A stretch of DNA of 18,055 bases from a virus. The stretch lies in UHGV virus genome UHGV-0106651; one strand, written 5' to 3'. A program made the position numbers and the translations under genes. Each line of letters begins with the position of its first letter. Position 1 is the first letter of the stretch. The notes beneath the pieces were generated by a model, which ran no database searches, had not been told where the DNA came from, and saw only the letters and a program-made list of their open reading frames with translations. Positions 5,549 through 18,055 of this stretch are shown piece by piece.

Positions 5549-7321
5549 ATGACCATCACCACAGACACCACTCTTTTACACGACCCGCGTCGTCAGGCGG
5601 CGCTGCTGTACTGGCAGGGGTTTTCCGTGCCGCAGATTGCCGCCATGTTGCAGATGAAACGCCCGACGGTGCAGAGCTGGAAACAGCGCGACGGCTGGGA
5701 CAGCGTTGCTCCCATCAGCCGTGTCGAAATGAGTCTGGAAGCGCGGCTGACCCAGCTCATCATAAAACCGCAGAAAACAGGCGGTGACTTCAAGGAAATT
5801 GACCTGCTCGGACGCCAGATTGAACGACTGGCACGGGTAAACCGCTACAACCAGACCGGCAACGAGGCAGACCTTAATCCGAACATCGCTAACCGCAACA
5901 AAGGCGGGCGGCGCAAACCGAAAAAGAATTTTTTCAGCGACGAGGCTATCGAAAAGCTGGAGCAGATTTTCTTTGAGCAGTCTTTCGAATATCAGTTGCA
6001 CTGGTATCGCGCCGGGCTTGAGCACCGCATCCGCGATATCCTGAAATCCCGCCAGATTGGCGCGACGTTTTATTTTTCCCGCGAGGCGCTGCTGCGCGCC
6101 CTGAAAACCGGTCATAACCAGATTTTTCTGTCGGCCAGTAAAACGCAGGCGTATGTGTTCCGCGAATACATCATCGCCTTTGCCCGGCTGGTTGACGTTG
6201 ACCTGACCGGTGACCCGATTGTCCTGGGCAATAACGGCGCAAAACTGATTTTTCTCGGCACCAACTCCAACACCGCACAGAGCCATAACGGCGACCTGTA
6301 CGTCGACGAGATTTTCTGGATCCCGAATTTTCAGGTACTGCGTAAGGTGGCATCAGGTATGGCCTCACAGAGCCACCTGCGCTCGACCTATTTCTCCACC
6401 CCGTCCACGCTGGCGCACGACGCCTACCCGTTCTGGTCGGGTGAACTGTTTAACCGGGGACGCGCCAGCGCCGCCGAACGCGTGGAAATCGACGTCAGTC
6501 ATAACGCCCTTGCCGGTGGGCTTCTCTGTGCGGACGGCCAGTGGCGACAGATTGTCACCATTGAGGACGCCCTGAAAGGTGGCTGCACGCTGTTCGACAT
6601 TGAGCAGCTCAAACGCGAAAACAGCGCCGACGATTTTAAAAACCTGTTCATGTGTGAATTTGTTGACGACAAGGCGTCGGTGTTCCCGTTCGAGGAGCTG
6701 CAACGCTGCATGGTCGACACGCTGGAAGAATGGGAAGACTATGCACCCTTTGCCGCCAATCCGTTCGGCTCCCGCCCGGTATGGATTGGTTACGACCCGT
6801 CACACCGTGGCGACAGCGCCGGATGCGTGGTACTGGCACCGCCGGTGGTGGCCGGTGGCAAATTCAGAATACTTGAGCGTCACCAGTGGAAAGGCATGGA
6901 CTTTGCCACTCAGGCTGAATCCATCCGCAAACTCACCGAAAAATATAACGTTGAATACATCGGTATTGATGCCACCGGCCTCGGTGTCGGCGTGTTCCAG
7001 CTCGTGCGCTCGTTCTATCCCGCCGCGCGCGACATCCGCTACACGCCGGAAATGAAAACCGCAATGGTGCTCAAGGCAAAAGACGTTATCCGCCGTGGCT
7101 GTCTGGAATATGACGTCAGCGCCACCGACATCACCAGCTCGTTTATGGCTATCCGCAAGACCATGACCAGCAGTGGACGCAGCGCCACCTATGAGGCCAG
7201 CCGCAGCGAGGAAGCCAGCCACGCCGACCTCGCCTGGGCGACCATGCACGCCCTGTTAAATGAGCCACTCACCGCCGGTATCAGCACCCCGCTGACATCC
7301 ACCATTCTGGAGTTTTACTGA
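5549..7321 (+). CDS. P: Terminase large (ATPase) subunit gpP, 590 aa
   Basis: Start at ATG 5549 (MTITTDTTLL) with GAGGT ribosome-binding site 5 nt upstream. 590 aa; stop overlaps the Q start (TGATG). Confidence 0.9.
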   Translation: MTITTDTTLLHDPRRQAALLYWQGFSVPQIAAMLQMKRPTVQSWKQRDGWDSVAPISRVEMSLEARLTQLIIKPQKTGGDFKEIDLLGRQIERLARVNRYNQTGNEADLNPNIANRNKGGRRKPKKNFFSDEAIEKLEQIFFEQSFEYQLHWYRAGLEHRIRDILKSRQIGATFYFSREALLRALKTGHNQIFLSASKTQAYVFREYIIAFARLVDVDLTGDPIVLGNNGAKLIFLGTNSNTAQSHNGDLYVDEIFWIPNFQVLRKVASGMASQSHLRSTYFSTPSTLAHDAYPFWSGELFNRGRASAAERVEIDVSHNALAGGLLCADGQWRQIVTIEDALKGGCTLFDIEQLKRENSADDFKNLFMCEFVDDKASVFPFEELQRCMVDTLEEWEDYAPFAANPFGSRPVWIGYDPSHRGDSAGCVVLAPPVVAGGKFRILERHQWKGMDFATQAESIRKLTEKYNVEYIGIDATGLGVGVFQLVRSFYPAARDIRYTPEMKTAMVLKAKDVIRRGCLEYDVSATDITSSFMAIRKTMTSSGRSATYEASRSEEASHADLAWATMHALLNEPLTAGISTPLTSTILEFY

Positions 7322-8349
7322 TGAGCAAGAAAAAAGGGAAAACACCGCAACCTGCGGCAAAAACAATGACCGCCAGCACCCCGAAAATGGAGGCATTCAC
7401 CTTTGGTGAGCCGGTGCCGGTACTCGACCGCCGTGACATTCTGGATTACGTCGAATGCATCAGTAACGGCAGATGGTATGAGCCGCCGGTCAGCTTTACC
7501 GGGCTGGCAAAAAGCCTGCGTGCTGCCGTGCATCACAGCTCCCCGATTTACGTCAAACGTAATATTCTGGCTTCAACGTTTATCCCGCACCCGTGGCTTT
7601 CCCAGCAGGATTTCAGCCGCTTTGTGCTGGATTTTCTGGTGTTCGGTAATGCGTTTCTGGAAAAGCGTTACAGCACCACCGGTAAGGTCATCAGACTGGA
7701 AACCTCACCGGCAAAATATACCCGTCGTGGCGTGGAGGAGGATGTTTACTGGTGGGTGCCGTCCTTCAACGAGCCGACACCTTTTACGCCCGGCTCCGTG
7801 TTTCACCTGCTGGAGCCCGATATTAATCAGGAGCTGTACGGCCTGCCGGAATATCTCAGCGCCCTCAACTCTGCCTGGCTGAATGAGTCGGCCACGCTGT
7901 TCCGCCGCAAGTATTACGAAAACGGCGCTCATGCCGGATACATCATGTACGTCACTGATGCCGTGCAGGATCGCAACGATATCGAAATGCTCCGCGAAAA
8001 CATGGTGAAGTCGAAAGGCCGCAATAACTTTAAAAATCTGTTTCTCTATGCCCCACAGGGGAAAGCCGACGGCATTAAAATTATCCCGCTCAGTGAAGTG
8101 GCGACGAAGGACGATTTTTTTAATATCAAAAAAGCCAGCGCCGCTGACCTGCTGGACGCGCACCGCATCCCCTTTCAGTTGATGGGTGGCAAGCCGGAGA
8201 ACGTCGGGTCGCTGGGTGATATTGAGAAAGTGGCAAAGGTCTTTGTCCGCAATGAACTTATCCCGTTACAGGACAGGATCCGCGAGATAAACGGCTGGCT
8301 TAGCACAGAGGTTATTCAATTCAAAAATTACTCTTTAGACACCAATTAG
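7321..8349 (+). CDS. Q: Portal protein gpQ, 342 aa
   Basis: 342-aa product immediately downstream of P on the same strand, ending at the edge of the AT-rich cargo, as expected for the cos-proximal portal gene. Confidence 0.9.
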   Translation: MSKKKGKTPQPAAKTMTASTPKMEAFTFGEPVPVLDRRDILDYVECISNGRWYEPPVSFTGLAKSLRAAVHHSSPIYVKRNILASTFIPHPWLSQQDFSRFVLDFLVFGNAFLEKRYSTTGKVIRLETSPAKYTRRGVEEDVYWWVPSFNEPTPFTPGSVFHLLEPDINQELYGLPEYLSALNSAWLNESATLFRRKYYENGAHAGYIMYVTDAVQDRNDIEMLRENMVKSKGRNNFKNLFLYAPQGKADGIKIIPLSEVATKDDFFNIKKASAADLLDAHRIPFQLMGGKPENVGSLGDIEKVAKVFVRNELIPLQDRIREINGWLSTEVIQFKNYSLDTN

Positions 8350-8395
8350 CCCTAGTGATTATACGATAATTAGCCCTAGTATTATCTAGGGCTAA
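8346..8395. repeat. Three copies of TTAGCCCTAG (two direct, one inverted) forming a 10-bp perfect stem-loop; likely bidirectional terminator between convergent Q and the cargo operon
   Basis: TTAGCCCTAG at 8346-8355 (overlapping the Q stop codon) and 8370-8379; reverse complement CTAGGGCTAA at 8386-8395 with a 6-nt loop. A T-run follows on the plus strand at 8411-8417. Confidence 0.6.
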
Positions 8396-8408
8396 CAATT
8401 ATATAATT

Positions 8409-8981
8409 CTATTTTTTCATATTGTATATAACTTCGCAAACACCCGTCAGTGTTAATCGGCTATAATTTTCCAATGTAAACACAGGATAATCATAAAAAA
8501 CCTCAGGTTCTGGCAATGGCGAACGAACAGTTGTTCTTTTATTTGACTGCATCCTCCTCGACAATTTACTTATTACACCAATGTAACCCACCTTTCTTGA
8601 CAAATGCCCATGTAATTTCAATACAGAATATAGCCACTTACAAAAATGAATGCCAGTAACTATCTGTTTAGCGGCACGATTTGAGTTATAAGACTTAAGA
8701 TCTATTACGATAAAATAATCCATATCCCTGTACGACGTAACAAAAATCCCATCACAAACAGAGGATAGCCCAGTTAAGGTTGAAGATTTTAAAAATTTCC
8801 AAACTGGTTTAGATACACTAGTAGAATCTAACGAAAATCCATATACACCATTTCCATTCACCAATAATTTCTTATTAGCAGAACTGGGATTATCTTCGCA
8901 TATGACCCAACATGCCTGCTCCCGTGTTAATTGAAATGCAGGATCGATGCAATTCTGTATTACACTGATAATATTACTCAT
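8409..8981 (-). CDS. Hypothetical 190-aa protein, second gene of the cargo operon; possible small TOPRIM-like nuclease partner (speculative)
   Basis: ATG at 8979-8981 (reverse complement) overlaps the upstream ATPase stop by 8 nt (ATGAGTAA), indicating translational coupling. AT-rich. Contains WVICEDNPS and RDMDYFIVID, loosely resembling the TOPRIM glutamate and DxD motifs; no confident domain call. Confidence 0.6.
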   Translation of the reverse strand: MSNIISVIQNCIDPAFQLTREQACWVICEDNPSSANKKLLVNGNGVYGFSLDSTSVSKPVWKFLKSSTLTGLSSVCDGIFVTSYRDMDYFIVIDLKSYNSNRAAKQIVTGIHFCKWLYSVLKLHGHLSRKVGYIGVISKLSRRMQSNKRTTVRSPLPEPEVFYDYPVFTLENYSRLTLTGVCEVIYNMKK

Positions 8982-10410
8982 CTGCCCCCTCACTATCAGA
9001 GGAGTTTTCTACTAACGAATAATATATTTCATCATTATCATCATTAATGGCGTTAATTACCTCATCAAAAGTTACAGCATGAATTCCTTCATTTGATTTT
9101 TGCATTTCATTTACAGAACCGCCATCAAATAAATAAGCAGCAACCATGTTAGAATCTAAAATTGAGTCGATGCTAATTCCTTGCTTACGCATTACAGTGT
9201 TTCGTTTTTCAATCATATTTTCAGAAACGCCATGAAGCATCATTAAGCTATTGATTTCCTTGACAAAATAATCACTGTGAGTACTAACAACAACCCGAAT
9301 ACCAGAGTTAACTAATTTTGCCAAAAATCTTGCAATTACTCGCTGATTTGACGGGTGTAAATTTAACTCTGGTTCGTCAATCATTAGAATGTCACCAACT
9401 TTTGCTTGATGTTCTAAATAAAACCATAAACCAAACAAACTCTTAACAGTAGATGACGATAAATGAAGATCAATTTTTTTGCTTGCAGGTGTTTTACCTT
9501 TCTTATATGTAGAAAAGTAAATTTGCCCTTCAGGATCAACCGAATATTTCCCTGATATTATTTTTTTTACTTCTTCTGCCAACTTATGAAATTGGCCATT
9601 TTTATTTTTTCTATTTACCTTAATCTCATTTAGCCAGTCTATATAATTTGCTATAGGAGCAGAATATCTTGACTTCATTACATCCATTAACAGTGAATTA
9701 AGATCGAATTGCTCTTTTGAAGCATGATGCAATAATGTAGTTCTTCTAGAGCTTAATTCATTAAAAAAAAGATGCAATCCATTCCTTTCAGCAGGAATTA
9801 AGAAGGCCGGACTTTCATCATGCTCGATTTTTAATAACTGACTTAGAGTCAAATTTATAAACCCGTCTACTCTTGGAAAAACAGAATCTAGCAGCGTCAT
9901 TTGTATGATATTACTGTTTTCATCTTTGGATAATAGCATTACTTCTTTTTTGCCAGTTCCTATGACGAGGCTAACATCCAGTTTTTTTTCATAAACACTT
10001 GATGTTAATGACTCTTCATCAATAACCCAGTCAAATGTTGAATTAGAAAAAATCTCATTATCATTAGTACTAAACACATCCCTCAGCATTAAAGATGAGC
10101 TTTTATTAAACTCTTTTTTAATTAACGTGAAGTTATTTTTTATCCAGTCAATCACATCTAACTCAAACTTGCCATTTTCACGAAGAGTTTTGGCAAAGTT
10201 TGCTACTTGTGGCAATTTTAAAGATGGTGATGGCATATTTAGGAAGCCATATAACCCATACATAACCCATGTTTTACCAGTGTTATTCTTCCCACATAAA
10301 AGAGTTAAAGGTTTTGCATTAATCTCTCCTGCAGAGATACACCCAATATTTTTAAATGAAAACTTCCATGATGCTAATTTACTTACATTAATTTCACTTT
10401 GCTTTTTCAT
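8974..10410 (-). CDS. ABC-type ATPase of the AAA_21/AAA_15 (OLD/SMC-like) kind, 478 aa; first gene of the cargo operon
   Basis: Walker A LLCGKNNTGKT near the N-terminus, signature-like HLSSSTVKSL, Walker B ILMIDEPELNLHP, H-loop VVVSTHSD. Strong ribosome-binding site AAGGAAG 5 nt before the ATG. Roughly one-third GC by eye, against a visibly GC-richer phage backbone. Confidence 0.8.
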   Translation of the reverse strand: MKKQSEINVSKLASWKFSFKNIGCISAGEINAKPLTLLCGKNNTGKTWVMYGLYGFLNMPSPSLKLPQVANFAKTLRENGKFELDVIDWIKNNFTLIKKEFNKSSSLMLRDVFSTNDNEIFSNSTFDWVIDEESLTSSVYEKKLDVSLVIGTGKKEVMLLSKDENSNIIQMTLLDSVFPRVDGFINLTLSQLLKIEHDESPAFLIPAERNGLHLFFNELSSRRTTLLHHASKEQFDLNSLLMDVMKSRYSAPIANYIDWLNEIKVNRKNKNGQFHKLAEEVKKIISGKYSVDPEGQIYFSTYKKGKTPASKKIDLHLSSSTVKSLFGLWFYLEHQAKVGDILMIDEPELNLHPSNQRVIARFLAKLVNSGIRVVVSTHSDYFVKEINSLMMLHGVSENMIEKRNTVMRKQGISIDSILDSNMVAAYLFDGGSVNEMQKSNEGIHAVTFDEVINAINDDNDEIYYSLVENSSDSEGADE

Positions 10411-10670
10411 TGAACTTCCTTAATCAATCACATACAAATAAAGAAGACCATTGTTCATGTGAAAAATCAATACTTTCGATACTATACTAAATGACTACGA
10501 ACAATAGTGCTTCACTCTCCACCAATCCTGATAGGTTAAGATATATGGGCTGTTTTCTCAAACTTGCCGCGCTGTACTGAGCCTCCTGTATAAGTCATTT
10601 AATATAATGCGCATCCTAACTCTGAAACAGTAAGTTTATCTGTGCTACATTTCCGTTTTGCATGCGCGCA

Positions 10671-10689
10671 GTGCTTTCCCCGCCTCGCC
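10671..10689. other. cos: cos site: the 19-nt cohesive-end sequence of P2/186-type phages (present here as the reverse complement)
   Basis: GTGCTTTCCCCGCCTCGCC at 10671-10689 is the exact reverse complement of GGCGAGGCGGGGAAAGCAC, remembered as the P2 cohesive end. It lies between A and Q as expected for a prophage. Confidence 0.8.
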
Positions 10690-10811
10690 CGCCCGCTTCG
10701 CGGGTCACATTTAATGCAGTTGCATAAAGGCGTCAAAACCACACCGGTACTGGCAACAAGTGACCATAAAAACGGCTTTTGGCACATGCAAAACAATGCA
10801 CCTAATGCACG

Positions 10812-10841
10812 CACACAAAAACGGGGAAAGTCGCTTCCCCC
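10812..10841 (-). terminator. Rho-independent terminator downstream of the 174-aa gene
   Basis: On the minus strand, a GGGGAA/TTCCCC stem with a short loop is followed by GTTTTTGTGTG, about 12 nt after the stop of the 10852..11376 ORF. Confidence 0.6.
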
Positions 10842-10851
10842 ACAAACATTA

Positions 10852-11376
10852 TCAACGCACCGGAATGTAAGATTCAAGGTCTCTGATTACGGCTTGTTTC
10901 AGTGCTTCAGATACAGCCTCAAGTTCTGGCAATGCTGGCTTTTCACTTAAGTTCGTTTCGAATTCCCCGCTTCCTATTACTAGCGTAAAGCCATTTCCAT
11001 CACGTAGCAGTTTCAAAGGAATAATCACGTTTAACTTAGGATGAGCAACCGGTGACTTATCCACTGTAAGGCCAATAAAAAATGACAAAATCCCATCTGC
11101 ATCAGGCAACAGATCGTGTAACTGAACTTTAGATTTTTCACCATCTTTAATTGCAGCGACAAAAACATAATTTTCAGTGGGGTTTTGCCCTGGATAGCCC
11201 CAGCAAGTTTGCTCAAGCTCAAGCGACCCCTCAAAGTTTTTCGCAATCAGCCCAACAATATTTTGTAAACGCTCTTTTTCCTCTCTCTGTAACCGAACGA
11301 TTTCAATATACTTATCTCTTATAGTCTGAAAAGTAATCACTTTAATCTCCTGAAACGGTTTACACAGAAACAGCAT
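10852..11376 (-). CDS. Hypothetical protein, 174 aa; orphan cargo gene on the replication-gene side of cos
   Basis: Uninterrupted ORF with a purine-rich stretch (AGGGGG) before the ATG and its own terminator downstream. No recognisable motifs. GC appears intermediate between the backbone and the ATPase operon. Confidence 0.6.
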   Translation of the reverse strand: MLFLCKPFQEIKVITFQTIRDKYIEIVRLQREEKERLQNIVGLIAKNFEGSLELEQTCWGYPGQNPTENYVFVAAIKDGEKSKVQLHDLLPDADGILSFFIGLTVDKSPVAHPKLNVIIPLKLLRDGNGFTLVIGSGEFETNLSEKPALPELEAVSEALKQAVIRDLESYIPVR

Positions 11377-11439
11377 TTAACCCCCTGATAATATTTCTTT
11401 CAATAATTTTCCTAACACCAAACTGCGCTCGTGGTTCAA

Positions 11440-11478
11440 CCCCGCCAGCCCTGAAAACAAGTTTCACGACTGGCGGGG
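11440..11478 (-). terminator. GC-rich stem-loop just downstream of the 68-aa ORF; possible terminator of the A-containing operon
   Basis: CCCCGCCAG (11440-11448) pairs with CTGGCGGGG (11470-11478); the loop contains a nested TGAAA/TTTCA stem. No clean U-tract follows, so terminator function is uncertain. Confidence 0.4.
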
Positions 11479-11482
11479 TTCT

Positions 11483-11689
11483 CTATCGTCTGCGTGGTGC
11501 TGGCATAACTCTGGACTGACTGATATAGCTAAACCGCCCGTAATTATCCCGGACTATTTCGGCACACCCGACTAGCTCATCGGGCGTCAGATTTTCGTTG
11601 ACCATAATCTGCTGTAGACGCTGAACAATGGCCATCAGCTTGGCGCTTTTGGCGTTATGCTGCGGTATCTCGCCTGGTATTCTGTGCAT
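11483..11689 (-). CDS. Hypothetical small protein, 68 aa, translationally coupled to the upstream DUF3850-like gene
   Basis: ATG at 11687-11689 (reverse complement) overlaps the upstream TAA stop as TAATG. The track ORF 11483..11701 has an earlier in-frame ATG; the coupled start is preferred. Confidence 0.45.
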   Translation of the reverse strand: MHRIPGEIPQHNAKSAKLMAIVQRLQQIMVNENLTPDELVGCAEIVRDNYGRFSYISQSRVMPAPRRR

Positions 11690-12141
11690 TATCCAAGCCA
11701 CCCGTTTTGCTGTGCACGCTCCACCTGTTCATCTGAATAGTTCCATGCTCCATCCGTGGCAACCATTGCCCCGCCAGACATCCCCGTCTCTGGTTCATAC
11801 ATAACAGCAAGGCCGAGCTGATGCATAATTTCATGATTAATTCTGAATATCAGGCCACGCTCACTAAGTTCTTTCCAGTTCACAATCTCATATGCACCTG
11901 TATTAAGCAGCTCAATACTTAGCAAGACATAATCTTCCAGCCAGTCTGACAGGTCAGTAACATCTGTTATCCGGGCTTCAACCTTTCGCCCCGTATACAC
12001 ACCCTGCACCCATTCACGCAAAATCAACGTGTCCCGGCGCTCATAATTACGGTCATTTTTCCGAAACTCTGCACGTTTATGTCCTTCCAGCACAAGGTCG
12101 AAATATTTTGCGTGAAGCTTTACCTCGTGAATTTTTGCCAT
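11689..12141 (-). CDS. DUF3850-like (ASCH/PUA-like fold) protein with a C-terminal HExxH-containing extension, 150 aa
   Basis: Start MAKIHEVKLHAKYFDLVLEGHKRAEFRKNDRNYERRDTLILREW resembles the remembered DUF3850 consensus. C-terminal part contains INHEIMHQLG. Its ATG overlaps the A stop (TAATG). Confidence 0.6.
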   Translation of the reverse strand: MAKIHEVKLHAKYFDLVLEGHKRAEFRKNDRNYERRDTLILREWVQGVYTGRKVEARITDVTDLSDWLEDYVLLSIELLNTGAYEIVNWKELSERGLIFRINHEIMHQLGLAVMYEPETGMSGGAMVATDGAWNYSDEQVERAQQNGWLG

Positions 12142-14426
12142 TATGTCCACTCCATTACTGTTGAGAATCCCAGCCACTCATCAGCGACCGGATACGTGAA
12201 TTTTTTCCCGTCGTAATTTACGGTCGCGCCACGCACCAGCGCCTCAAGCTCCCATCGCTGCGGCCTGATACCGTTCTGAGCAAGGTCAACGCGGATACGG
12301 GTGATTTGCAATCGTTCAGACCTGGTCAGTCTGGCAGATGGTGCAATTTCATGCGGTTTTAACGGGATTCCGTTTCTTTGCTGACGATTTGGTGTTCTCA
12401 GTCCGTGTTTTAATGCGCCCCTGAGCGCCATCACGACCTCCGGGTCACTCCATTCGATAACACCGTCATCTACCAGATTAAGCACTGCTGCGGCGTGCTC
12501 AGAAGGTGTGGGAGCCGGTAACGAAGTATCACCACCGGTGAGCTTTCCACAGTTATTGACAGGACTCCGAGGCGCGGCGATGCCGCTTTTTAAAGTCAAA
12601 GGCTCCACGACCGGCACTTTCGGCACAATGCGCCAGTCCGTCGTTCTGGTGATATGAATATGACGCGCGCCGAGATGCGGCGCGTAAATGCCGACCACTC
12701 TCTCGACCTCTTCCTCGTACTCGTTAACGTCATCCGACGAGCTACGGGCAACCCTGACAGTCTGACAATCGCGCGGGACATTTGCCCCACCCTGCGCGCT
12801 GATATACAGCGCAAAATCGCCACTGTCTGCGGCAGCGCGTGCAGCCTCGACGCGTTCGTCAAACTCATCAGCAATGCTGACACCGCGGGGCAATTTGCGT
12901 AGTTCACGGTAAGCCCCCATTGTCGGCAGGCCAACAGTTTTAAATTGTGGGATACGCCACGTTGACGCCCATGCGGTAACAGCCGCAGCAGTATCTTTCA
13001 GTGGCCTGCCGGTATCGTTATCGAGCTGACCATCCAGTGCATAGCCATCGATGTTTTTTGAGATGTATTTCGCGATATACCCCGCAGCACCGCCCCGATT
13101 AAGATGTTTTGCCTGAAAACGGTTTCGCGCGGCTCCTCTTTCGTCGCCATCCTCTTTAAGCGCATAGCGACGCATGATTTCGATAATCTGGTTACGCTGG
13201 CGTGGATTACAAAAAAGCATCATATGCCAGTGCGGCGTTCCGTCGTGGTGTGGCTCGACGACTCGCAAACCGTAGACCTGTAAATCATTATCCTTGAATG
13301 CCGTGCGCATCAGGCTCCAGATGCGGCAGAGATAACGCTGCGCATCCTTTGGATTAAATGCCTCATCGTTCCAGCCGTGATTAAGCTGGACGGTTTTACT
13401 TTCGCCTTTTCTGACCTGACGTGTCGGGTGATACTTTGACGGCGCGGTCAGCGTGATAAACATCCCCACATCACCCTCTGCGGCAGCGTAACGCTCAATA
13501 CCGGCGATGGTGTTCATCAGCTCCATCCGGCGAATTTCTGGATTAGAAATACTGCCCATCACCTTACTGATAAGGTCGATGCGCTCGCCGGTTTCCCTGT
13601 TTTCAAGGTCACACGATTTAAGAAATTCCAGATTTGCCTGGCGGCGCGCACGCACATCACGAATGGCATGTTTACTGGCATAAGGAGAACGGTCTTTATT
13701 GACCTCCCCGACAGCAATCAGTAACGCCTCATGCCAGCGCATACGCTGGCCTTTAAGCTGATGAGTCCACCATTCATCGTTAAACAGACGGGCAATGGCA
13801 GAATATGCCTGCCTCGTGGTCATCTGCCCTTTACGGTATTTTTTCAAGTAGAGCGGGGAAATATTGAAAGCACGTGCAGCGCCAGCAACATGACCATACA
13901 GGTGAGCCTGCGCCTCATCCGTAAACAGCGATTCTTTTTCGCCATGGGCATCCACCCAGGCATCGCAGAGTTCCTCATACATCATGAAAAGCTGCGATGA
14001 GATACGGGCGGCAAATTTTTTCAGCTCCTTGTCATTCATTCCCGGCAGGCGCGCATAGTGGTCACGCTCTGCCAGAAACAGTAACGACGCGTCGGTGTTC
14101 ATTTCATGGCGCTGATTCACGCGCTCAATGCGCGGCCATAAACGACGCTGAAAAGTGGCTGTGAGGAAATAAAACCCGTGCACCGGGCTTTTATTGCGCC
14201 GGATGTAGTCATAGCGTGAAGTAAACAGCGAGCGCAAAAAGTAAGGCAGGCGATTAATCGTGGATAAAACACCTTGCACCTGACGCATCTCGTCACGTGT
14301 AAGGGGTCTTTCGCGCCCGACGGCCTCGCGTGGCGCGTTCCATGCATAAGCACCGGTAAACGTCTCACCGGTGCCTGCGGCAAATGCTGACGGAGGGACA
14401 AAACGCCCGGAGGCTTTAACGGCCAT
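12141..14426 (-). CDS. A: Replication initiation protein gpA (rolling-circle HUH endonuclease), 761 aa
   Basis: Start at the ATG giving MAVKASGRFVPPSAFAAGTGE, 761 aa as in P2 gpA. HUH motif TPHWHMMLF and tyrosine-pair region YIAKYISK are present. Confidence 0.9.
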   Translation of the reverse strand: MAVKASGRFVPPSAFAAGTGETFTGAYAWNAPREAVGRERPLTRDEMRQVQGVLSTINRLPYFLRSLFTSRYDYIRRNKSPVHGFYFLTATFQRRLWPRIERVNQRHEMNTDASLLFLAERDHYARLPGMNDKELKKFAARISSQLFMMYEELCDAWVDAHGEKESLFTDEAQAHLYGHVAGAARAFNISPLYLKKYRKGQMTTRQAYSAIARLFNDEWWTHQLKGQRMRWHEALLIAVGEVNKDRSPYASKHAIRDVRARRQANLEFLKSCDLENRETGERIDLISKVMGSISNPEIRRMELMNTIAGIERYAAAEGDVGMFITLTAPSKYHPTRQVRKGESKTVQLNHGWNDEAFNPKDAQRYLCRIWSLMRTAFKDNDLQVYGLRVVEPHHDGTPHWHMMLFCNPRQRNQIIEIMRRYALKEDGDERGAARNRFQAKHLNRGGAAGYIAKYISKNIDGYALDGQLDNDTGRPLKDTAAAVTAWASTWRIPQFKTVGLPTMGAYRELRKLPRGVSIADEFDERVEAARAAADSGDFALYISAQGGANVPRDCQTVRVARSSSDDVNEYEEEVERVVGIYAPHLGARHIHITRTTDWRIVPKVPVVEPLTLKSGIAAPRSPVNNCGKLTGGDTSLPAPTPSEHAAAVLNLVDDGVIEWSDPEVVMALRGALKHGLRTPNRQQRNGIPLKPHEIAPSARLTRSERLQITRIRVDLAQNGIRPQRWELEALVRGATVNYDGKKFTYPVADEWLGFSTVMEWT

Positions 14427-14691
14427 ATGAGCCAAAAGCCTCTGAACAACGCTTGCTGAGTTGCTCAACCTGCGCGTTTAAATCAGCAAAAGACTTTGCG
14501 CTTCCGGTCAGAATATCGTGATGCATCAGGCCGGAAACGAGCTGGCTTAATTTCGGGTAATAACCAACCACCGCCAGCCATTCCTGACCGGCGTTTTTAC
14601 CGCTTTCAGCTCTCTTTTTCTCGTGGAGAATAAACTGAAAGCTGTCACAGGTAACGACATAACGTTCGCCAATTTCTATACGAATACTCAT
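14416..14691 (-). CDS. Small early protein, 91 aa, immediately upstream of A (resembles the small ORFs between B and A in P2)
   Basis: ORF overlapping the A start by 11 nt, in the same orientation and operon. Confidence 0.6.
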   Translation of the reverse strand: MSIRIEIGERYVVTCDSFQFILHEKKRAESGKNAGQEWLAVVGYYPKLSQLVSGLMHHDILTGSAKSFADLNAQVEQLSKRCSEAFGSYGR

Positions 14692-16002: not shown

Positions 16003-16193
16003 TTCCAGACCCTCCGGCTTTTCAGAAAGGTCAGAGCCTTTTTTAACGGACTCTGTTTTTTGGTGCGGATAATGATTCCCTTACGCCCCTTACCGTGGGT
16101 GATGGTGAAGTCAATCGCCCTGGGGCTTTCGTTACGCAATAACTGAGCAATACAACGAGGCTCATTCATACGGTTCTCCTTAACGTGGTTCAC
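15999..16193 (-). CDS. Small ORF between cox and B (64 aa, or 56 aa from the internal ATG at 16169)
   Basis: Short basic ORF in the position of the small ORF that follows cox in P2. Start codon choice is ambiguous; the longer form overlaps the cox stop. Confidence 0.45.
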   Translation of the reverse strand: MNHVKENRMNEPRCIAQLLRNESPRAIDFTITHGKGRKGIIIRTKKQSPLKKALTFLKSRRVWK

Positions 16194-16455
16194 CGAGACC
16201 TAACCACATCAACCAGCCGTCACGAATCTCTTTAGGGCGGCTTTCATAAGCCAGTTTTAGTCCGTTATTCCATGCCGGAAGGTATACCCAATATTCACCA
16301 GCACGCCCCGATACTGACTGAGGGTCAGTAATCTCAATAACTGGTAATTTCCCTTTCTCAATCATGCCCCTAACAGCTCTTGGAGTTTTACCAATGAGTT
16401 TTGCAAACTCCTGATAAGGCACGGCATCAGTCACGCTTACAAGCTGTCTATTCAT
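16180..16455 (-). CDS. cox: Cox (excisionase and transcriptional regulator of the lysis-lysogeny switch), 91 aa
   Basis: 91 aa, with a C-terminal two-thirds (GRAGEYWVYLPAWNNGLKLAYESRPKEIRDGWLMWLGLGEPR) matching remembered P2 Cox. AAGGGAGAA ribosome-binding site upstream. Confidence 0.85.
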   Translation of the reverse strand: MNRQLVSVTDAVPYQEFAKLIGKTPRAVRGMIEKGKLPVIEITDPQSVSGRAGEYWVYLPAWNNGLKLAYESRPKEIRDGWLMWLGLGEPR

Positions 16456-16576
16456 CTGCTACGATTCTCCCTTAGTGCTTCTAATGGCTCCTAATGGCTA
16501 ATTATTGCCTAAAAGGATAACTCCAGAAGCACAACATTTCACACTATCAGCAAGAAATTACGCAATCGGAGTAATT
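16456..16576. promoter_or_regulatory. Immunity switch region: divergent early (cox-ward) and repressor (C-ward) promoters with tandem direct repeats as candidate operators
   Basis: Intergenic region between divergent cox and C. Direct repeat CTAATGGCT at 16481-16489 and 16491-16499. Confidence 0.55.
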
Positions 16577-16876
16577 ATGTCAATAGACGTTTCGGAGAAG
16601 TTGAAGCTAATCCGTGAATCTGAAAGGTTAAACCGTAAAGAATTCAGTGAATTAACTGGTGTAGCCTACAGCTCACTTTCGAGCTATGAGAGCCGGTCAA
16701 AAAACGCTGGAGTTGAAGCCATAATGAAGGTCTTACAACATCCTAGATTTACTAAATATACTTTGTGGTTCATGACTGATCAGGTAGCTCCAGAAGCCGG
16801 GCAAATTGCGCCCGCTCTCGCACACTTTGGGCAAAACGAAACAACGTCGCCCCACTCCGGTCAAAAGACTGGTTAA
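16577..16876 (+). CDS. C: Immunity repressor C, 99 aa
   Basis: Start at ATG 16577 (MSIDVSEKLKLIRESERLNRKEF) with GGAG ribosome-binding site. The C-terminal half (FTKYTLWFMTDQVAPEAGQIAPALAHFGQNETTSPHSGQKTG) matches remembered P2 C; the N-terminal DNA-binding half differs. Confidence 0.85.
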   Translation: MSIDVSEKLKLIRESERLNRKEFSELTGVAYSSLSSYESRSKNAGVEAIMKVLQHPRFTKYTLWFMTDQVAPEAGQIAPALAHFGQNETTSPHSGQKTG

Positions 16877-16991
16877 CAATTTATCGTGAATATATTCATC
16901 ACAAGTGCCTACTATTGGTGGCTAAATTTCAGCCACCACGAAAAAAGCTATTAGTAGTAGCAAAAAAAAGTACCACTCGGAGGGTTTTCTG

Positions 16992-18005
16992 ATGGCAATC
17001 AAAAAACTCGATGATGGTCGATATGAAGTGGACATCCGCCCTACTGGACGTAACGGAAAACGCATCCGTAGGAAGTTTGATAAGAAAAGCGAAGCTGTCG
17101 CTTTCGAAAAATACACGTTGTACAACCACCACAATAAAGAATGGCTATCAAAACCAACAGACAAACGACGTCTGTCGGAACTGACACAGATCTGGTGGGA
17201 TTTAAAGGGTAAACACGAAGAGCATGGGAAATCTAATCTTGGAAAAATTGAAATCTTCACAAAAATAACGAATGACCCATGCGCATTTCAAATCACGAAA
17301 TCCCTTATCAGCCAGTACTGCGCCACCCGAAGAAGTCAGGGTATTAAACCTTCGAGTATCAATCGTGATTTAACATGTATTAGCGGCATGTTTACAGCCC
17401 TGATTGAAGCGGAGTTATTCTTTGGTGAGCACCCTATCAGAGGGACAAAGAGGCTTAAGGAGGAAAAACCAGAAACAGGCTATCTCACACAGGAAGAAAT
17501 TGCCTTACTGCTTGCAGCACTTGACGGCGACAATAAAAAGATTGCGATTCTTTGCCTGAGTACAGGAGCACGTTGGGGAGAAGCAGCTCGTTTGAAAGCA
17601 GAAAATATCATCCATAACCGCGTCACGTTTGTTAAAACGAAAACAAACAAACCACGCACCGTCCCGATCTCAGAGGCTGTTGCCAAAATGATCGCGGATA
17701 ACAAACGAGGTTTTTTATTCCCTGATGCTGATTACCCTCGCTTCAGACGAACAATGAAAGCAATAAAACCGGATTTGCCAATGGGGCAAGCCACACATGC
17801 ACTAAGGCACAGCTTTGCCACTCATTTCATGATTAATGGAGGAAGTATTATCACGCTACAACGGATACTAGGTCACACGCGGATTGAGCAAACTATGGTT
17901 TACGCTCATTTTGCGCCAGAGTACCTTCAGGACGCCATTTCTCTTAATCCGCTAAGAGGTGGTACTGAGGCCGAGAGTGTCCACACAGTGTCCACAGTAG
18001 AGTAA
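16992..18005 (+). CDS. int: Tyrosine integrase, 337 aa
   Basis: 337 aa with the tyrosine-recombinase catalytic region (HALRHSFATH ... LGHTRIEQTMVYAHF). Same length and position as P2 Int. Confidence 0.9.
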   Translation: MAIKKLDDGRYEVDIRPTGRNGKRIRRKFDKKSEAVAFEKYTLYNHHNKEWLSKPTDKRRLSELTQIWWDLKGKHEEHGKSNLGKIEIFTKITNDPCAFQITKSLISQYCATRRSQGIKPSSINRDLTCISGMFTALIEAELFFGEHPIRGTKRLKEEKPETGYLTQEEIALLLAALDGDNKKIAILCLSTGARWGEAARLKAENIIHNRVTFVKTKTNKPRTVPISEAVAKMIADNKRGFLFPDADYPRFRRTMKAIKPDLPMGQATHALRHSFATHFMINGGSIITLQRILGHTRIEQTMVYAHFAPEYLQDAISLNPLRGGTEAESVHTVSTVE

Positions 18006-18055
18006 CGTTTAAGGGCTTTCAGTGGTAATTTATGCCGCTCAAACCCGCATTGTAC

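Follow-up and report, generated by a model that had tools for sequence, protein, structure and literature searches.

A P2-like prophage switch, most likely of the P2 Hy dis (E. coli B) immunity class, with a candidate C operator around the Pe -35 and a tandem repeat on the Pc/Cox side

The DNA analyzed here is a stretch of 18,055 nucleotides of the viral genome UHGV-0106651 (hereafter called the window), which belongs to a P2-like prophage and carries at its end a regulatory region with the gene order cox - spacer - C - int. The cox gene (16180-16455, minus strand) encodes Cox, a protein of 91 aa acting as repressor of Pc and as excisionase; it matched Pfam Phage_Cox with an E-value of 1.7e-42 and the structure of P2 Cox (PDB 4LHF) with an E-value of 6e-51. 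The sequence GGGAGA at 16466-16471 on the minus strand was read as the candidate Shine-Dalgarno sequence of cox. The C gene (16577-16876, plus strand) encodes an immunity repressor of 99 aa which carries Pfam HTH_3 and matched P2 C (PDB 2XCJ/2L49) over its full length with an E-value of 2.5e-39. The C start codon is located at 16577; hence, the cox-C spacer ends at 16576 and comprises 121 nt (16456-16576). The int gene is located downstream at 16992-18005 on the plus strand. A search for Rfam families in the window gave no hit.

With about 100 aa, an N-terminal HTH, a conserved C-terminal half, and a position upstream of int as the first gene of the Pc operon, C shows the features of a P2-type C repressor. 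Comparison with P2 C revealed 64 identical residues out of 99 (64.6%), which are unevenly distributed: residues 1-55 showed 24/55 identities (44%) as compared to 40/44 (91%) for residues 56-99. Cox and P2 Cox share 76 of 91 residues (84%); all 15 differences are located within residues 2-48, and identity is complete over residues 49-91. The original prediction, made from the DNA sequence without database searches, had stated that C resembles P2 C in its C-terminal half only and that Cox differs from P2 Cox at its N-terminus; both statements were confirmed by these alignments. The gene order and the face-to-face arrangement of Pe and Pc are also those of P2 (class I, AF063097).

The immunity class of the switch was determined by comparison with phage and bacterial genomes. 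A megablast search of phage genomes returned vB_EcoM-720R8 as the sole full-length match (99.6%), and P2 and its relatives matched the flanks only; a complete P2 Hy dis genome was absent from the phage collection searched. Among complete E. coli genomes, the cox-to-C segment was found at full length in 347 out of 5426 (about 6%), including E. coli B, and 350 records matched at an identity of at least 99%. In E. coli B REL606, ogrK and yegR (on the chromosome around yegQ) flank a P2-like prophage which is defective; C, Cox, and the whole 121-nt spacer of this prophage are 100% identical to those of the window. From the cox stop codon to the C stop codon, the window and REL606 differ by just two nucleotides, both of which are silent and located inside cox. 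The immunity region of P2 Hy dis derives from a defective prophage of E. coli B, as reportedly described by Cohen in 1959 and by Renberg-Eriksson in 2001.

Three switch classes were typed experimentally, namely P2, P2 Hy dis, and WPhi (PMC1904268). The C protein of Hy dis was reported to be 63% identical to P2 C (PMC1904268), as compared to the 64.6% determined for the window. Furthermore, primer A3-44 (CCTTTCAGATTCACGG), with which the operator of Hy dis had been amplified (PMC1904268), matched exactly at 16612-16627 on the minus strand with 0.01 matches expected by chance, and residue E33, which is carried by Hy dis Cox (PMC3936717), is also present in the Cox protein of the window. Via the E. 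coli B prophage, the primer, and the published values, no difference from Hy dis class II was detected except for two. The C proteins of WPhi and the window are 49.5% identical, and the published value for WPhi and Hy dis is 44% (PMC1904268). In addition, T25 is given for Hy dis Cox (PMC3936717), and the window has T24 and P25 instead; this mismatch may reflect an alignment offset, the proline of WPhi being found at position 24 of the alignment as well. Based on the identity with REL606 and the exact match of primer A3-44, the switch of the window is most likely of the immunity class of P2 Hy dis and E. coli B. This type of switch, together with its repressor and operator, has already been characterized experimentally, and nothing new is added to it here.

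The operator of P2 Hy dis consists of two 8-bp half-sites separated by 26 bp (2.5 turns) from centre to centre; they flank the -35 of Pe, and O2 carries a natural point mutation (PMC1904268, PMC2995052). Pairs of 8-mers spaced by 8-45 bp and differing at no more than one position were searched for in the region, and three families were obtained: the tandem repeat (10 bp), AGAAATTA / AGTAATTA (17 bp), and TCGGAGTA / TCGGAGAA (26 bp). The latter is the sole pair in the region with a spacing of 26 bp at this threshold. Its copies differ by one mismatch and are located on both sides of TTGACA at 16578-16583 on the minus strand, which overlaps the C start codon and agrees in position and sequence with the annotated -35 of P2 Pe. 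Seven other P2-type classes share the motif ATGTCAA, in which the Pe -35 and the C start overlap. On the minus strand, TAATTT at 16555-16560 follows the -35 at a distance of 17 bp, which corresponds to the geometry of P2 Pe; it is the candidate -10 of Pe. A consensus scan of 16300-16750 for promoters and terminators returned neither Pc nor Pe; the Pe -10 matched the consensus at just 3/6 positions, and the -35 of Pc was poor.

The copy TCGGAGTA at 16566-16573 (plus strand; TACTCCGA on the Pe strand) is located in the spacer between the -35 and -10 of Pe and is designated candidate half-site O2; it overlaps the C Shine-Dalgarno sequence GGAG at 16568-16571. The copy TCGGAGAA at 16592-16599 (plus strand; TTCTCCGA on the Pe strand) is located upstream of the Pe -35 inside C codons 6-8 and is designated candidate O1. 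The assignment of O1 and O2 to these copies follows the usage for P2 and is provisional. As positive controls, the same repeat search returned the operator of P2 (ATCTAAAC twice, 22 bp) and that of WPhi (GTCACCAATA twice, 34 bp); on the other strand, the proven P2 and WPhi operators read GTTTAGAT and TATTGGTGAC, respectively (PMC1904263 and, for P2, the annotation of its genome). The P2 operator is arranged around the -10 of Pe, whereas the pair of the window (TCGGAGWA twice, 26 bp) is arranged around the -35. This arrangement, i.e. an 8-bp pair with a single natural mismatch spaced by 26 bp around the Pe -35, is that of Hy dis class II (PMC1904268). The published geometry and the identity with the E. 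coli B prophage both point to the TCGGAGWA pair at 16566-16573 and 16592-16599 as the probable C operator. Because the pair overlaps the Shine-Dalgarno sequence and the conserved S-E-K codons, part of the similarity between its two copies has other causes.

P2 Hy dis is documented as heteroimmune (PMC1904268). In the switch of the window, the P2 half-site ATCTAAAC was absent even when one mismatch was allowed. Residues T33, Y36, and R41 of P2 C were proposed to read bases and were named as determinants of specificity (PMC2995052); at these positions the C protein of the window exclusively carries serines (T33S, Y36S, and R41S), and its recognition helix reads YSSLSSYESRS as compared to YGTLSYYESGR in P2. 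The absence of the P2 half-site and the differences at residues 33, 36, and 41 support heteroimmunity to P2 well, albeit indirectly; as a property of this class, it is not new. Together with the correspondence between the switch and that of the E. coli B prophage, these sequence features indicate an immunity specificity which is almost certainly different from that of P2, in agreement with the original prediction.

A different repeat is located in the half of the spacer next to cox. At 16481-16499 on the plus strand, the tandem repeat CTAATGGCT c CTAATGGCT was found with exact copies at 16481-16489 and 16491-16499, as had been noticed before. In a wider register, GCTNCTAATG occurs twice followed by GCT (16477-16499; GCTtCTAATG / GCTcCTAATG / GCT) with a period of 10. 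For a 121-nt spacer, an exact run of 9 nt at an offset of 8-12 nt was obtained in 39 out of 20000 mononucleotide shuffles and in 88 out of 20000 first-order Markov simulations, corresponding to a p of about 0.002-0.004 for the chance occurrence of such a repeat. The tandem repeat therefore exceeds chance in the spacer. Over the whole window, similar short tandem runs were counted four times with 0.3 expected. A third near-copy, CTAATAGCT at 16946-16954 on the minus strand, was dismissed as being at chance level, with 3.3 one-mismatch matches expected.

The two copies of the tandem repeat represent two out of four units which are phased by 10-11 bp and constitute candidate cox boxes over Pc at 16476-16514, as suggested by positional alignment with P2. 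On the minus strand, these units read TTAGAAGCA (16484-16476), TTAGGAGCCA (16494-16485), ATAATTAGCCA (16505-16495), and TTTTAGGCA (16514-16506); their starts are located at 16476, 16485, 16495, and 16506. The array aligns with the P2 units TGCGTTTAA / TGTCTTATAA / TGCCTTTTAG; these contain TATAAT, annotated as the Pc -10, and the perfect cox box TTAAACGCA (cox strand). Cox boxes were described to start 10-11 bases apart and to overlap the -10 and -35 of Pc (PMC3936717); the array next to cox comprises several copies with a start spacing of 10-11 bp and, by alignment with the annotated Pc -10 of P2, overlaps Pc. Recombination directionality factors, including the related protein Apl, typically bind to direct repeats with a spacing of one helical turn (PMC7498355). 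In addition, a perfect 8-nt inverted repeat (GTGCTTCT / AGAAGCAC, 16475-16482 and 16525-16532) brackets the phased array; it is about what is expected by chance for 241 nt and was discarded as a signal.

The four units were also compared to the strict cox-box consensus TTAAA(G/C)NC(A/C). They scored 6/8, 5/8, below 6/8, and 6/8, which gave P = 0.56 against shuffled sequences, whereas the Pc region of P2 itself scored 8/8, 6/8, and 7/8. Because matches are not enriched over shuffles, membership in the cox-box consensus is not claimed; the assignment relies on positional homology, phasing, and co-variation. The Pc-side units of the window can be written as TTAGRAGCM and those of P2 as TTAAASNCM. 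In a lenient scan, TCTAAT, CCTAAT, and GCTAAT were the best candidates for the Pc -10; the scan did not distinguish among them, and all of them had a poor -35. Pc of P2 was described as the weaker promoter (PMC1904263). Furthermore, Hy dis Cox complements a P2 cox mutant (PMC3936717), and the attP P' arm and as much of the Cox site annotated for P2 as is contained in the window (17953-18055) are 100% identical to P2. From this complementation and the P2-identical attP, it follows that Cox must recognize boxes of the P2 type. Binding of Cox to the degenerate units at Pc is plausible, and the CTAATGGCT units most likely represent Cox-binding and Pc promoter elements.

A comparison set of 80 related IMG/VR loci was compiled with Cox as the query, and the spacer as well as both proteins were extracted; together with P2 and WPhi, these loci represent nine switch types. 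In the cox-proximal spacer of the eight P2-type classes, the only invariant columns were A29, T30, G32, A38, A39, T40, T47, and T50 (numbered along the spacer of the window). The first six of these columns correspond to the cores of the two tandem units (AAT.G and AAT), and the classes are otherwise just 50-70% identical. A core which is common to heteroimmune classes, including P2, cannot set immunity specificity. In three classes whose Cox N-termini are 100% identical and whose C N-termini are identical at just 58-78%, the identity was 80-89% in the cox-proximal 55 nt and 54-57% in the C-proximal remainder. For P2 and locus L080, which share the C helix and differ in Cox, the reverse was observed with 67% identity in the cox-proximal and 80% in the C-proximal part. 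In WPhi, Cox is about 40-42% identical and the cox-proximal repeat is wholly different (GTCCCTTCTAGG twice, 20 bp apart). The cox-proximal half of the spacer follows the type of Cox and not the type of C.

Within the class of the window, 50 loci yielded 14 distinct spacer variants, and zero substitutions were found in 16456-16529. Variation was almost completely confined to the 25 nt at 16530-16554 between the array and the Pe -10, a stretch in which the convergent transcripts of Pe and Pc presumably overlap; a singleton at 16570 is located inside O2. Both repeat families are essentially invariant among the 50 loci. P2-type switches can be described as being built from two exchangeable half-spacers, which is useful for operator prediction in untyped immunity classes. 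At least five C classes in addition to these are represented by the IMG/VR loci L055, L060, L056, L054, and L078, each having its own C-proximal direct repeats, e.g. TAGAGAATAyCGAA twice, 20 bp apart, in L078; the ATGTCAA overlap of Pe -35 and C start is present in all five. A natural recombinant was also observed in E. coli (NZ_CP189662.1), which has the same C, spacer, and first approximately 35 cox codons combined with another C-terminal part of Cox. Its breakpoint is located near window position 16349 inside cox, and it is therefore uninformative with respect to the spacer.

The original prediction had regarded the two copies of CTAATGGCT as half-sites of the C operator which define a new immunity specificity. 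P2-type C proteins do bind to direct repeats (PMC1904268, PMC2995052), and the tandem repeat is both non-random and invariant within its class. We nevertheless consider this function very improbable: the repeat has a spacing of 10 bp and is located near the cox start, whereas the published spacing is 26 bp around the Pe -35; its units are located 79-102 bp from the Pe -35 on the side of Pc; and they do not have any sequence in common with the TCGGAG pair, whose half-sites with Hy dis geometry are found about 70-115 bp away. Furthermore, a class-specific operator over Pe is not compatible with a unit core that is invariant in eight heteroimmune classes, nor with a half-spacer that co-varies with Cox. 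The comparison of C, Cox, and operator with P2 and WPhi, which had been proposed as a check, supported an immunity other than that of P2, but the wrong repeat had been attached to C. An equally improbable origin of the repeat is replication slippage leading to a neutral duplication without function. The copy is short, perfect, and in tandem, and such runs are not rare in the window; however, the 14 spacer variants vary freely at 16530-16554 and not at all at 16456-16529, and the core columns are retained across classes with otherwise limited identity.

The repeat may also serve as a promoter only, its CTAAT cores being reiterated weak Pc -10-like hexamers to which Cox does not bind specifically. 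One of the units aligns with the Pc -10 of P2, the three CTAAT-containing hexamers ranked at the top of the lenient scan, and the match with the strict cox-box consensus is weak. A single -10 hexamer is sufficient for a promoter, however, and would not need four helically phased units; moreover, all P2-type classes show this phasing, and in WPhi, whose Cox is divergent, it is replaced as a whole. The cox boxes of P2 physically overlap Pc (PMC3936717), so that the roles as promoter and as Cox site are compatible. Taken together, a role as promoter only appears unlikely. Slightly less probable still is a further proposal in which the TTAGRAGCM units constitute either a distinct variant of the Cox box or a secondary C site of low affinity which autoregulates Pc. 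A distinct variant would mean that Cox reads two types of boxes, namely the P2 type at attP and a divergent one at its own Pc, and with either of these functions the Hy dis-class switch would differ mechanistically from P2 on the Pc side.

With good confidence, we favor a face-to-face Pe/Pc switch of the Hy dis class in which C acts on the TCGGAG pair and the tandem repeat is part of the Pc/Cox array. In this switch, rightward transcription from Pc would provide the C repressor, which is predicted to bind to the direct half-sites TCGGAGTA and TCGGAGAA flanking the -35 of the leftward promoter Pe. Binding of C would block Pe and thereby turn off cox and the replication genes. Conversely, Cox produced from Pe would most likely polymerize on the array at 16476-16514 and shut off Pc, and hence C and int. 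Both the binding of Cox to the array units and the choice of a CTAAT unit as Pc -10 are putative elements of this switch.

The proposed switch shares with P2 class I the overlap of the Pe -35 (TTGACA) with the C start and the 10-bp-phased units over Pc. WPhi (class III, NC_005056) has the same architecture, with C acting on direct repeats and a second family of repeats next to cox; it differs in its C and Cox proteins, which are about 50% and 42% identical, respectively, and in the length of its spacer (152 nt), in addition to the operator and cox-proximal repeat described above. A similar arrangement is found in coliphage 186 (PMC7498355), in which an excisionase/regulator acts on direct repeats with a spacing of one turn between the early promoters pR and pL (the Apl operator); phage 186 differs by an excisionase of the Apl subfamily, a repressor of the CI type, and an unrelated sequence of the sites. 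The immunity class, repressor, and operator were characterized between 2001 and 2007, and the switch therefore has little value as a discovery. Its value lies in annotation: the prophage should be typed as class II (Hy dis) and heteroimmune to P2, with 16566-16599 annotated as the probable C operator and the tandem CTAATGG units as elements of the Pc/Cox side.

Outside the switch, a variable cargo slot was observed between the portal gene (7321-8349) and gpA (12141-14468). It harbors the two-gene anti-phage defence system PD-T4-4 (8409-10410, minus strand), which consists of PD-T4-4_A, an AAA_15 ATPase (8974-10410, minus strand, E 1.6e-111), and PD-T4-4_B (8409-8993, minus strand, E 5e-12). 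The slot contains further small ORFs at 10599-12177 on the minus strand; the ORF at 11689-12177 (minus strand) carries ASCH/DUF3850 and DUF7415 domains, and those at 10852-11376 and 10599-10877 (minus strand) gave no match in Pfam or PADLOC. The cargo of the E. coli B prophage is different and comprises an ABC-three-component system and an AAA ATPase; window positions 8300-12463 did not match this prophage.

At the other end, the segment 17953-18055 corresponds to the P' arm of P2 attP and the Cox site, and the window hence ends some 30-50 bp before the att core is reached. At 17976-17996, within the 3' end of int, AGTGTCCACA is repeated with a spacing of 11 bp. The consensus of P2-type Int arm sites was reported as tgTGGaCa (PMC3448106); on its other strand, AGTGTCCACA corresponds to this consensus, and it coincides with the annotated P' arm of P2.
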